Assembly: GCA_018829905.1 (NCBI GenBank)
Contig: JAHJST010000005.1
Location: 1-61,213 of the forward strand
DNA: 61,213 nucleotides
Direction: 5' to 3'
Origin: Patescibacteria group bacterium
GTDB taxonomy: Bacteria > Patescibacteriota > Minisyncoccia > RBG-13-40-8-A
Shown here: positions 48,409 to 53,510 of the stretch, piece by piece
Numbering within the stretch: the first letter of the stretch is position 1
Layout of the letters: each line of letters begins with the position of its first letter
Position numbers and translations under genes: made by a program
The notes under the pieces: model-generated
Told to the model about the DNA's origin: nothing
What the model saw: only the letters and a program-made list of their open reading frames with translations
The model's database searches: none

Positions 48409-49734
48409 TTAAGGTGTCCAACCAATATTATTGGGCCCACCATTATGCCCCATGTCTCCTCTATAATTACCACTTTTTATTGTTGCATCATTATATTCTC
48501 TTGCTGGATTGCCAGAATTTAAACAAGGAGATTCATCAGTGCCAGTTTTTAAATCATAATTTCTTTGAGATGTTTGGACATATTTAGGATTTGCATTTAT
48601 TGAACCAGAACCAATACTAATATTTTTATAATTCTCACCATTTTGCCATACATCATTATATGAAGCGCTAATTTGCCCATCTCCAGAATGATAAACACCA
48701 TAACTATTAGTTGCTCCAAAATGATTAGTAATAATATTATTCATTACTTTTAAATTAGAGTTTTCAGACCAAACTGCTCGATAATTATCATCTATAGTAT
48801 TATTAATCAATTCAAAAGTAATGTTATAAGAATAATTATTCTTTACCATAATAGCAGCTCCTAAGCTTTTATCAGAATGTTTGATATTATAAATCAAGTT
48901 ATTTGAAACTTTTAAATCACAATTTCCTTCAGCTAAAATACCCCAGCCAGATTCTTTAATAATTGTATTTTTAATTTCTCCACTTCCTTCAGAACAATAT
49001 ATTGCTTTTCCATCGCTATTATTAATACTAAATCTTTGTATTAAAATATCATAACCGCCACTAATTATTATTCCACCATTAATAACAGCTGATGTAGCAT
49101 AAACACCAATCAACTTAATGTTTTTATTAATAACAACATCTCCTACATATTCACCACCATTAACAGCAATTGTATCTCCATTAATAGCATTATCAATTGC
49201 TAATTGAATTGTAGAATAATCAGAAGGAACATTAATTGTCATTGGATCACGAGAAGGAACTTCTGGTTCTGGCATTGGTTCAGGTTCTGGCTCTGGAATA
49301 GTTTCAGCAACCAAATCAGCACCAGAAGCATAAAAGTTTTTTTCAAATAAATTAATTGTATAAATAGAAGCCCAATTAAATGAAAAACCATTAAAATCAT
49401 TAGCAGTTTTAATCCATCTTTTTTCACCAGAATCTCCTAATGGATATAGTCTATAAACCATTTTATCATCAATTGATCTAACTAAATCAGAAGTAACAAA
49501 AGAATTAACAACAGATTCATCAACAGTTTTAATGTTTTCCCATTTTAAATGACTATATTGATTAAATATTTCAGGATTTAAAATTAATCTTTTAAATTTC
49601 TTGTCCCCTATTAATTTAACAATATACACATCTATATCAGCACGAATCAAATCTCCATCAATAATATCAATATTAGCCTGAGAAAATAGAGGGAGAAAAA
49701 ATAATAATATTAAGATGAATAAAAACTTTTTCAT
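48409..49734 (-). CDS. secreted right-handed parallel beta-helix protein with N-terminal copy of the shared domain
   Basis: Signal peptide, GDLIRADIDVYIVKLIGDKKFKRLILNPEIF..., PEPEPEPMPEPE linker, and PbH1-like repeats (NGGIIISGGYDILIQRFSINNS..., NNLIYN, NNTIDDN, NNIITNH). Confidence 0.7.
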   Translation of the reverse strand: MKKFLFILILLFFLPLFSQANIDIIDGDLIRADIDVYIVKLIGDKKFKRLILNPEIFNQYSHLKWENIKTVDESVVNSFVTSDLVRSIDDKMVYRLYPLGDSGEKRWIKTANDFNGFSFNWASIYTINLFEKNFYASGADLVAETIPEPEPEPMPEPEVPSRDPMTINVPSDYSTIQLAIDNAINGDTIAVNGGEYVGDVVINKNIKLIGVYATSAVINGGIIISGGYDILIQRFSINNSDGKAIYCSEGSGEIKNTIIKESGWGILAEGNCDLKVSNNLIYNIKHSDKSLGAAIMVKNNYSYNITFELINNTIDDNYRAVWSENSNLKVMNNIITNHFGATNSYGVYHSGDGQISASYNDVWQNGENYKNISIGSGSINANPKYVQTSQRNYDLKTGTDESPCLNSGNPAREYNDATIKSGNYRGDMGHNGGPNNIGWTP

Positions 49735-49743
49735 ATAATATAT

Positions 49744-52800: not shown

Positions 52801-53510
52801 GTTAAACGAACGCCATTTTCATAAATGTAAATGTCGCCGAAATCTGCAACTGCACCAGCTCCTAATCTCTTTAATGTAAGTTGGTTAAGAATACCAGTAC
52901 CAGTAATCCTAATACTCATGAAGGTAACGCCCTGTGCGTTTGTAGGAAGAGTAGATGCAGCTGGATTATCACTTGCCAAAGACAAGATCATATCACCAGT
53001 TACATCAGGACTTCCACACACTGTACCTGCATCAGTTGAGTAATTGCCTTTATCAATCGCATTGATGATATAGACAGAACTCCAATCATAGTTTTGACTG
53101 CGAAAACAATCAAGTGATTCAACCCATTTCTTAGTACCAGTATCTCCATCTGGGATAAGATTATAGACTTCTTCATCGTCTATTGGTCTTACCAAAGTAG
53201 AACTTACATAGGTTTTAAGAGTATCAGCTGAAACTTTCTTGATGTTTGACCAGCTAAGGTGTCCATAACTGTCAAAAACTTGTGGGTTTAAGACAAGACG
53301 TTTGAATTTCTTGTCACCTACAAGTTTAATAATAAAGACATCATATGGGTGGTAAGTCAAACCATCTGCATCAGTAAATGAAGCATCTGGGCTTACAACG
53401 TCACCATCAACTATAGTTGCTGCAGAAACTGGGACAGCTAGGAATAAACCAAAGCCAGCCATAGTAAGAGCAACAGCAACAGTCAAAACTCCAGAAATAA
53501 TTTTACTCAT
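49857..53510 (-). CDS. 1217-aa secreted Ala/Thr/Gly/Ser-rich surface (S-layer-like) protein with N-terminal shared domain
   Basis: Signal peptide MSKIISGVLTVAVALTMAGFGLFLAVPVSA. Shared domain YDVFIIKLVGDKKFKRLVLNPQVF... The remainder is low in Cys, Lys and Arg and looks beta-rich. G+C is clearly higher than the flanks. Confidence 0.7.
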   Translation of the reverse strand: MSKIISGVLTVAVALTMAGFGLFLAVPVSAATIVDGDVVSPDASFTDADGLTYHPYDVFIIKLVGDKKFKRLVLNPQVFDSYGHLSWSNIKKVSADTLKTYVSSTLVRPIDDEEVYNLIPDGDTGTKKWVESLDCFRSQNYDWSSVYIINAIDKGNYSTDAGTVCGSPDVTGDMILSLASDNPAASTLPTNAQGVTFMSIRITGTGILNQLTLKRLGAGAVADFGDIYIYENGVRLTSGRALSSSTSKVTFINLGIQAPTTIQVVADMVTTGATAGDVNYFGIESASDVTADATVGGTFPLNGNPMGIGGTAGGTLIVAVSGSSARNVTIGAQNVEITQFKVTASTEGTNLQRIKLFNSGTASNELITNLVLKDNAGVTVGTATKIGADGYVDFILSPAYYIKKGDSEIFRVFANVGAVKPDRTITLYLELSTDILGVGTTYGFGMAATVTAYASGALVTITCKGGDLTLNKIGPNANNVGTKTSDTVFLEYTVSAAADITIKRTRLVFCIDYDGNGTYLASTSAGADITDIKIVDKDSGTVVAGPKDGTSFNDGTSAICPSSGTGMYEDFTDTIDVVSGETKTYQVTADIDTSATDSGANIAAADIVEFILSSYASLVGTSGNVSYMKYAGTTDAVDDSAIAPSGHIAGESMTIAAPSLAITLAASPAGGDVTADEKVYIAGQGGVDAVGFIFTAGNASDVTVNSIQLTAYTAEATGVALAAGIDTNYVKDSISIVRAIDKDTGAQIPGSGEKGFTSGTNFENTDYTGLSWTIPAGESKTLLVNVDVSSAAPASASSADTWIGFDIVDISADVTAIDEDGNSVTGTGDASNPLAATVNFGIADYGSLTIDNATDTPDKSLVVMGTNDNEISKFKLTGTNEAWNIETFSIVLDDGGGIDPEDRDNFSAVKVKYQTMSQWDSDNWTISSGKTFGATASLAFSFSGDNRIYVPKDDDSFVTVLVSIPAYSNTKKSKVPFKMYDLDGSSSSLKVYGAQSGKLLTSYTTDSAAAADFNLHFVTRSKPVFAKVAWSGAEAELARFSITAVGYNVVFDGTAGTEADYASAALRFDILASSTDAATGDLTLYDWNENVLSSAGTVTWGNGTLGSVSFVFEEKDATITAGLTREFHIDLGSADISGDFLKTDEYVYLQLRNDDGGNLATGSMSFGARDIVYGDETNEEGISGQGDPESRFGMPALIKNIGSIPITFRTLRGTATP

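Follow-up and report, generated by a model that had tools for sequence, protein, structure and literature searches.

The stretch of DNA analysed here (the window) comprises 61,213 nucleotides (nt), positions 1 to 61,213 of contig JAHJST010000005.1 in assembly GCA_018829905.1, from a Patescibacteria group bacterium. Its G+C content is 28%, and it consists largely of a glycan-biosynthesis island. Three secreted proteins encoded within it, of 441, 1217 and 431 amino acids (aa), share a domain that appears to be undescribed and that probably anchors its carriers to the cell envelope. The domain is 122-135 aa long by the envelopes of a hidden Markov model (HMM). The coordinates of its three copies, of the proteins that carry them and of other features of the window are collected in Table 1.

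Table 1. The three domain copies, their carrier proteins and other features, in window positions.
Feature	Position	Strand	Description
441-aa secreted protein	48409..49734	-	Open reading frame (ORF); signal peptide, domain, Pro/Glu-rich linker, right-handed beta-helix (NosD-like)
1217-aa secreted protein	49857..53510	-	ORF; signal peptide, domain, long Thr/Ser/Ala/Gly-rich body
431-aa secreted protein, glycan locus	31386..32681	-	ORF; signal peptide, N-terminal part without a family, Thr/Ser-rich linker, C-terminal domain
Domain copy 1	49309..49674	-	Residues 21-142 of the 441-aa protein, right behind the signal peptide; HMM envelope E 3e-50
Domain copy 1, unit 1	~49501..49665	-	Unit HMM match E ~1e-21
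Domain copy 1, unit 2	~49324..49500	-	Unit HMM match E ~1e-21
Domain copy 2	53019..53423	-	Residues 30-164 of the 1217-aa protein, right behind the signal peptide; HMM envelope E 1e-46
Domain copy 3	31395..31766	-	Residues 306-429 of the 431-aa protein, extreme C-terminus; HMM envelope E 6.5e-48
DUF5667 single-pass membrane protein	53719..54513	-	Anti-sigma-like topology; PF18915 E 1e-14; directly upstream of the 1217-aa gene
Extracytoplasmic function (ECF)-type sigma-70 factor	54611..55165	-	Sigma70_r2 + Sigma70_r4_2; head of the sigma/DUF5667/large-protein string
1031-aa protein	57164..60259	-	Lamin-tail domain + right-handed beta-helix (NosD-like); shared domain absent
833-aa protein	3023..5524	-	Wzy_C (O-antigen ligase-like) domain + TPR repeats
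692-aa protein	33853..35931	-	TPR families only
B12-binding radical S-adenosylmethionine (SAM) enzymes (five)	11914..13332, 13337..14749, 21598..23064 (+); 27470..28834, 37047..38456 (-)	+/-	
One further radical-SAM enzyme	1212..2624	-	

The relationship among the three copies is evident in pairwise blastp comparisons. The domain regions of the 441-aa and 1217-aa proteins align at an E value of ~7e-38 (43% identity over 133 columns), those of the 441-aa and 431-aa proteins at 4e-23 (42% identity over 124 columns), and those of the 1217-aa and 431-aa proteins at 1e-18 (34-41% identity). All three are full-length matches to the domain HMM and carry the family motifs (146-157 bits, E 1e-46 to 3e-50, HMM positions 2-124). 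The three-sequence alignment places a 13-residue insertion in the first hairpin of copy 2. Outside the domain, no significant mutual similarity was detected among the three proteins, all other blastp matches having E > 0.6, and a six-frame tblastn search combined with an HMM scan of the whole window found no fourth copy. An earlier note, made from the sequence alone, had described one block common to three otherwise unrelated secreted proteins, situated behind the signal peptide in the 441-aa and 1217-aa proteins and at the C-terminus of the 431-aa protein. The HMM envelopes and the blastp comparisons agree with that description, and the similarity survives rigorous alignment (E 1e-18 to 1e-38, 34-43% identity). 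The positions assigned to the block fall within the HMM envelopes, but its proposed length of ~115 aa was too short.

By inspection, the three proteins have typical Sec signal peptides, probably cleaved after SQA, VSA and SLA. Sequence inspection also revealed no lipobox Cys, no LPXTG motif and no further strongly hydrophobic or C-terminal transmembrane segment in any of them, and therefore no alternative anchor is visible. Residues 176-297 of the 441-aa protein give a weak match to the NosD profile TIGR04247 in NCBIfam (E 2e-6), and orthologues of this protein lie downstream of the large protein in three related loci (L001, L002 and L004). The 3' end of its gene overlaps by 65 nt with a 94-aa hydrophobic ORF with a GTG start (window 48189..48473, minus strand), which may either encode a small membrane protein or be spurious. 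The body of the 1217-aa protein resembles a beta-sandwich array, and the protein is a candidate major surface or S-layer-like protein. It shares 99% identity with a partial protein, MBU3923251.1, from a metagenome-assembled genome (MAG) labelled 'Patescibacteria group bacterium'. For the 431-aa protein, a Pfam scan gave no match. Its domain copy belongs to a C-terminal subtype ending in ...KTSL, with orthologous C-terminal copies in loci L023 and L027, and its place in the glycan locus is kept in L027.

The domain is an internal duplication. Comparison of its two halves with hhalign gave an E value of 8.5e-6 (probability 83%, 49 columns), and both halves follow a common pattern, roughly DL[IV]R - x - D.kVY - turn G - KR.[IV] - helix ..F..yG - W..[IV]..[IV] - helix. 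An AlphaFold2 model of residues 21-145 of the 441-aa protein, generated from a 91-sequence alignment, has a mean predicted local distance difference test (pLDDT) score of 96.7 and a predicted template modelling score (pTM) of 0.87. According to this model, the domain is predicted to consist of two tandem ~55-aa beta-beta-beta-alpha-beta-alpha units. The strands (E) and helices (H) assigned by DSSP are E9-11, E16-22, E25-30, H34-38, E48-50 and H53-57 in unit 1, and E64-67, E73-79, E82-88, H91-96, E105-107 and H109-114 in unit 2. A single unit modelled alone with AlphaFold2 shows the same elements (pLDDT 95.1).

Conservation was mapped across the 91 sequences. The most conserved residues are G7, D15, K28, R29, L30, L32, P34, F37, Y40, H42 and L43 in unit 1, and S62, Y74, D81, G83, N108 and Y115 in unit 2; W45 is invariant among the three window copies. 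The core motif of unit 1 is KRLxLNPxxFxxYGHLxW, and unit 2 carries GDxG..W and IN...Y. The polar and aromatic side chains conserved in unit 1 (K, R, Y, H, W) may form a binding site. In one subfamily, two cysteines are conserved (RNCET ... FCIN), as would suit a fold outside the cytoplasm. Overall, the domain is acidic; its median isoelectric point (pI) is 4.8. In a 974-aa protein of locus L033 (717..3641), the domain HMM matches as four overlapping partial stretches within residues 36-302; this protein looks like an array of single units, unlike the usual two-unit module.

Searches of known families and structures returned no relative. The three window proteins gave no match over the domain in Pfam-A (2025 copy), NCBIfam 20.0 or PHROGs, and the 91 family members, scanned one by one against Pfam, had no match over it either. 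Sequence and profile searches of the PDB found nothing for the domain. With Foldseek against the PDB, the two-unit model had no match at E <= 0.001, and the single unit was likewise without a significant match. Literature searches found no description of the domain. The family appears to be undescribed, as the earlier note had proposed, and its fold appears to be without a significant solved relative at the sensitivity of Foldseek. The note had also failed to recognise the block as an SLH, CWB or LysM-type domain, and no such Pfam profile matches it. The profile searches and structure prediction that it had suggested as a check assigned no known family with a non-anchoring role, and yielded the confident two-unit model described above.

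Several weaker resemblances were examined and rejected. Designed beta-propellers (Cake, Bagel) gave spurious summed matches in single-unit profile searches through a generic beta-hairpin motif, no individual stretch being significant. The top Foldseek matches of the two-unit model in the PDB were the periplasmic domains of EccB1 and EccB5 (E 0.15-1.8, probability <= 0.21), with a template modelling (TM) score of <= 0.36 and a root-mean-square deviation above 13 Å. The repeats of EccB1, which are 51-57 aa long and contain a 4-stranded sheet and two helices, have been compared to the wall-binding PlyCB subunit (PMC4769845). With its E-E-E-H-E-H series, each ~55-aa unit of the new domain likewise combines four strands with two helices; the likeness to the EccB repeats is one of element composition, not of topology. 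The EccB repeats, which belong to ESX type VII secretion, are also pseudo-symmetric tandem units of the cell envelope, and in this they resemble the two-unit domain. Wall binding by EccB repeats is only a hypothesis. At the profile level, hhalign of the unit and of the domain against the repeats of EccB1(Mtb), EccB1(Msm) and EccB3 gave E values of 0.2-0.7 with probability below 1%; the EccB1 query sequence was checked and is 100% identical to 4kk7_A. At the structural level, neither EccB nor PlyCB appeared in the top 50 Foldseek matches of the single unit, of which ribosomal eL38 was the best (E 0.48).

Among predicted viral structures (BFVD), the best structural neighbour, and the sole significant one, was A0A1I9SA71, an uncharacterised 115-aa protein of Rhodococcus phage Weasels2 (E 1.1e-5, TM 0.4). 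A 102-aa protein of Streptomyces phage LukeCage, A0A345MGB2, likewise uncharacterised, followed at E 9e-3. These two actinophage proteins were the only neighbours of the two-unit model with a Foldseek probability of 1.0, and their TM scores were about 0.4-0.5. A tblastn search of 50,697 phage genomes gave no match to the domain. With one significant BFVD match and an empty search of phage genomes, the phage link says nothing on function.

When 1.84 billion representative proteins, one per 50%-identity cluster, were searched exhaustively with the HMM, 2,800 matched at E <= 1e-3; of these, 1,963 reached E <= 1e-10 and 672 reached E <= 1e-30. The matching proteins are about 150 to 3,300 aa long. 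The named sources are nearly all Patescibacteria (Portnoybacteria, Spechtbacteria, Paceibacterota, Parcubacteria), and the same phylum accounts for 31 of the 33 loci from GTDB species representatives, a set of close relatives only, recovered with narrow peptide patterns from the three-sequence alignment. A few source labels lie elsewhere (Nanoarchaeota, Heimdallarchaeota, Phycisphaerae, Petrotogales, Omnitrophota, Gammaproteobacteria). The proteins concerned otherwise look patescibacterial, most are on short contigs, and the labels are probably MAG binning errors or contamination. Genomes contain several paralogues, and the family is split into divergent subfamilies.

The position of the domain is strongly biased toward the protein ends. 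Of 243 matches to the full-length domain, 131 carry it once, right behind the signal peptide, and 75 once, at the very C-terminal end. Two or three copies, often in tandem, are present in about 31, and a lone internal copy in only 6. Across the family, > 90% of matches are terminal. Its partner domains are uniformly extracellular. In 70 longer proteins they include fn3 (9), Kre9_KNH immunoglobulin (Ig)-like (6), Peptidase_S8 (4), TIG (4), cohesin (4) and trypsin-like (3) domains, together with kelch, SH3_3, dockerin, M23, beta-helix and S-layer domains. In short family proteins, the partner is Excalibur (10), glutaredoxin/thioredoxin (4-7) or PG_binding_1 (1); others have no partner at all, and these stand-alone secreted forms are 130-230 aa long. 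The homologue search with short queries returned proteins of 235 aa or less, and the long-protein architectures come from the exhaustive HMM search. The suggestion that the module can sit at either terminus of unrelated extracellular proteins, first made from the three window copies, therefore extends to the whole family, with one to three copies per protein and many extracellular partners.

The strongest functional argument comes from the N-terminus of the 1217-aa protein. This protein has 161 homologues at E <= 1e-10, most of those listed being 1140-1280 aa long, and the domain occupies the N-terminus in 113 of the 120 homologues examined. In P0368 (1522 aa), three SLH domains extend from the signal peptide to about residue 213, and body homology sets in at residue 250, which corresponds to residue 172 of the 1217-aa protein. 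This is exactly where the domain and its linker end in the 1217-aa protein, and SLH thus fills the same slot. In P0367 (1163 aa), PG_binding_1 is found at residues 85-137, and the homologous body begins at residue 174, opposite residue 174 of the 1217-aa protein. Three further homologues (P0369, P0371 and P0375) contain in this slot (residues ~37-170) a divergent sister two-unit domain with the motif GxLIK..AVYY..DGKRYVFPN..YFSWYPDFS. Comparison of the sister with the new domain by hhalign gave a probability of 92.8% and an E value of 4e-7 over 114 columns. The sister family is patescibacterial and has no Pfam entry; 376 members were detected, P0380-P0499 among them, and some are fused to M23 peptidases. 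In P0369, an apparent third unit follows at residues ~170-225.

The N-terminal slot of this conserved surface protein is therefore open to four modules, namely the new domain, its sister, SLH and PG_binding_1, of which the last two are established wall anchors. Such interchange makes it likely that the new domain does the same job.

The genomic context provides further information on possible ligands. A conserved ~55-kb glycan-biosynthesis island surrounds the domain genes. It encodes a priming sugar transferase, GT2 and GT4 glycosyltransferases, a Wzx-like flippase, a DegT aminotransferase, epimerases, AsnB, a polysaccharide deacetylase, a FemAB-like protein and at least six methyltransferases. 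The unusually high density of radical-SAM enzymes and methyltransferases suggests that the surface glycan is heavily C-methylated or carries other modifications. The PG_binding_1 variant P0367 adjoins Wzy_C, Polysacc_synt_2 and DegT genes and has no sigma/DUF5667 pair upstream. In locus L034, a Wzy_C-TPR gene lies directly downstream of P0367, an arrangement suggestive of a connection of the large surface protein with the ligation or polymerisation of glycan.

A second conserved linkage involves the genes upstream of the 1217-aa gene. The string of sigma factor, DUF5667 protein and ~1150-1450-aa surface protein, which occupies window positions 49857..55165 on the minus strand, recurs in L001, L002, L004, L009, L011, L012 and L014-L020. 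The synteny of the DUF5667 protein is kept in at least 11 related loci, and at least 13 proteins with an N-terminal domain are preceded by a sigma factor and/or a DUF5667 protein across the 33 loci. Locus L002 retains the whole string (ECF sigma, DUF5667, 1217-aa, 441-aa, GT4, deacetylase and FemAB-like genes); L001 and L004 have the same string, but a locus end or an interrupted ORF truncates one member. Neither the C-terminal-type proteins (L005, L006, L024-L029 and the 431-aa protein) nor many short stand-alone proteins have a sigma/DUF5667 neighbour. The two upstream genes look like a dedicated sigma/anti-sigma pair controlling the major surface protein; literature searches found nothing on DUF5667. 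In L014, a homologue of the 1031-aa protein lies upstream of the sigma/DUF5667 pair, and the 1031-aa protein may hence be part of this group of surface-protein genes.

Taken together, the analyses show a genuine, widespread domain that is internally duplicated and modelled with high confidence, lies at protein ends, is fused to many different partners and can trade places with SLH or PG_binding_1. It is probably a non-catalytic, non-covalent cell-envelope anchoring module. Binding to the envelope, as well as the nature of the ligand, is what we infer from here on. After Sec export and cleavage of the signal peptide, the domain would attach to some constituent of the producer's own envelope. 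Peptidoglycan is one candidate, but a secondary surface glycopolymer, such as the surrounding glycan island could make, is the likelier one; the glycan context and the SLH swap make such a polymer the most attractive ligand. Binding would keep the cargo on the cell surface, whether the large S-layer-like protein, the beta-helix protein, proteases, Ig/fn3 arrays or redox domains. The comparison with wall-anchoring modules drawn in the earlier note is strengthened indirectly, the supporting evidence being the terminal placement in > 90% of matches, the one to three copies per protein and the replacement in the slot by three SLH domains or by PG_binding_1.

Some observations weigh against an anchoring role. 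No sequence or structural homology to any characterised wall-binding module was found, and the replacement evidence rests on two proteins of 120. A few members also carry PG_binding_1 or SH3_3, so that the domain is not simply redundant with peptidoglycan binders. Its acidity (median pI 4.8) speaks against simple electrostatic binding to anionic wall polymers, and attachment through bulk charge is accordingly disfavoured. The tight synteny between the N-terminal-type proteins and DUF5667 leaves room for a protein partner in place of a glycan.

The ligand might belong to another cell. The domain could be a lectin-like or wall-binding module that aims adhesins and lytic enzymes (S8, trypsin-like, M23) at the host cell of episymbionts, a role that may be likened to that of the cell-wall-binding domains of phage lysins. 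The fusions to proteases, M23 peptidases, cohesin/dockerin, kelch and Ig/fn3 arrays would suit such a role in organisms with an episymbiotic lifestyle, as would the several paralogues per genome and their divergent subfamilies. The only significant structural neighbours, moreover, are small uncharacterised actinophage proteins (BFVD best E 1.1e-5). Host targeting is nevertheless unlikely. The conserved, syntenic 1217-aa family has the domain in 113 of 120 members, and the replacements found there, SLH or PG_binding_1, are classical self-wall anchors. The motif KRLxLNPxxFxxYGHLxW is also strongly conserved across lineages with presumably different hosts, for which a conserved self ligand is the better fit.

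The partner might, alternatively, be a protein. The domain could serve in docking or assembly, contacting the DUF5667 ectodomain, which comprises residues 84-264 of that protein, or the subunits of a surface lattice, and would then mediate anchoring or sigma signalling via the membrane protein. Possible analogies are cohesin-dockerin pairing and the N-terminal signalling domain of FecA-type transducers, which contacts an anti-sigma factor. In line with this, a sigma factor and/or DUF5667 protein precedes the large protein with an N-terminal domain in at least 13 cases in the 33 loci, P0367, in which PG_binding_1 takes the slot, lacks the upstream pair, and a two-unit pseudo-symmetric architecture would suit oligomerisation. 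The C-terminal-type and short stand-alone proteins, however, have no sigma/DUF5667 neighbour, and replacement by SLH or PG_binding_1, which bind glycan or peptidoglycan, points to a slot for wall attachment. The very diverse cargo likewise favours a general envelope ligand, and docking is improbable. Still less credible is a domain that binds nothing and serves as a structural spacer, an intramolecular chaperone or a pro-domain connected with secretion. Many proteins do have it right behind the signal peptide, but extreme C-terminal placement is just as common, tandem copies and stand-alone proteins of 130-230 aa occur, unlike position-specific pro-domains and sorting signals, and the conserved polar and aromatic residues K28, R29, Y40, H42, W45, D81 and N108 suggest a functional surface.

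As an envelope anchor, the domain can be compared with known wall-binding modules. The S-layer homology domain, SLH (PF00395), is a triplicated anchor whose ligand is pyruvylated secondary cell-wall polymer. Like the new domain, it is non-catalytic, occurs N- or C-terminally on S-layer and other exoproteins, and takes the same slot in P0368. It is, however, all-helical, with ~55-aa repeats that work as a three-repeat trimer-like unit, whereas the new domain is predicted to be alpha/beta with two ~55-aa units, and PF00395 gave no match in the three window proteins or the 91 family members. PG_binding_1 (PF01471) is a peptidoglycan-binding three-helix domain. It is similarly a small terminal wall-targeting module found on diverse exoenzymes, and it fills the N-terminus of P0367, but it has no sequence or fold similarity to the new domain. 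PF01471 did not match over the domain, its matches falling only in separate regions of other proteins. The two are probably not redundant, because one short family member carries both.

LysM, CWB2, GW, SH3b and choline-binding repeats resemble the new domain in being terminal, in occurring in tandem copies and in being fused to hydrolases and surface proteins. None of them matched over the domain with hmmscan at E <= 1. The order of secondary-structure elements also differs, LysM being beta-alpha-alpha-beta, CWB2 Rossmann-like and SH3b and GW all-beta, whereas the new domain is modelled as twice beta-beta-beta-alpha-beta-alpha. The sister domain shares the N-terminal slot, the two-unit layout, the absence from Pfam and the patescibacterial distribution, but has diverged so far that it misses the domain HMM at E <= 1e-3 in a routine search, and it does not have the KRLxLNP..YGHLxW motif. 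The domain of the three window proteins is apparently a new family, with an apparently new fold, that probably does a familiar anchoring job.

Patescibacteria (the candidate phyla radiation, CPR) represent a very large share of bacterial diversity, are mostly uncultured and appear to live attached to other cells, so that their surface proteins are central to their biology. To our knowledge, little has been described of the way in which they hold these proteins on the envelope. The domain marks proteases, adhesin-like arrays, redox proteins and the conserved large S-layer-like protein. A 2024 preprint predicts S-layer proteins of 1131-1274 aa in Patescibacteria and speaks of novel anchoring domains in general terms (10.1101/2024.05.28.596244). 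If the 1217-aa protein is among that predicted set, part of the present finding may already be implicit there.

If the domain is an anchor, it would provide a sequence handle with which to list the surface proteomes of the CPR and a defined 120-aa target for binding and structural work, and it would tie surface proteins to the adjacent, unusual glycan-biosynthesis islands. An experimental structure would itself be new, since the fold is without a significant solved relative. A more far-reaching picture is possible, although we hold it only tentatively. The domain may be a Patescibacteria-specific new glycan-binding fold and the phylum's principal means of attaching the S-layer-like protein and the surface proteome to a lineage-specific glycopolymer, the product of the adjacent island rich in radical-SAM enzymes and methyltransferases, under ECF sigma/DUF5667 regulation. 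If the glycan-binding reading is true, the domain HMM would read out the surface proteome and candidate host-interaction proteins across thousands of uncultured CPR genomes.

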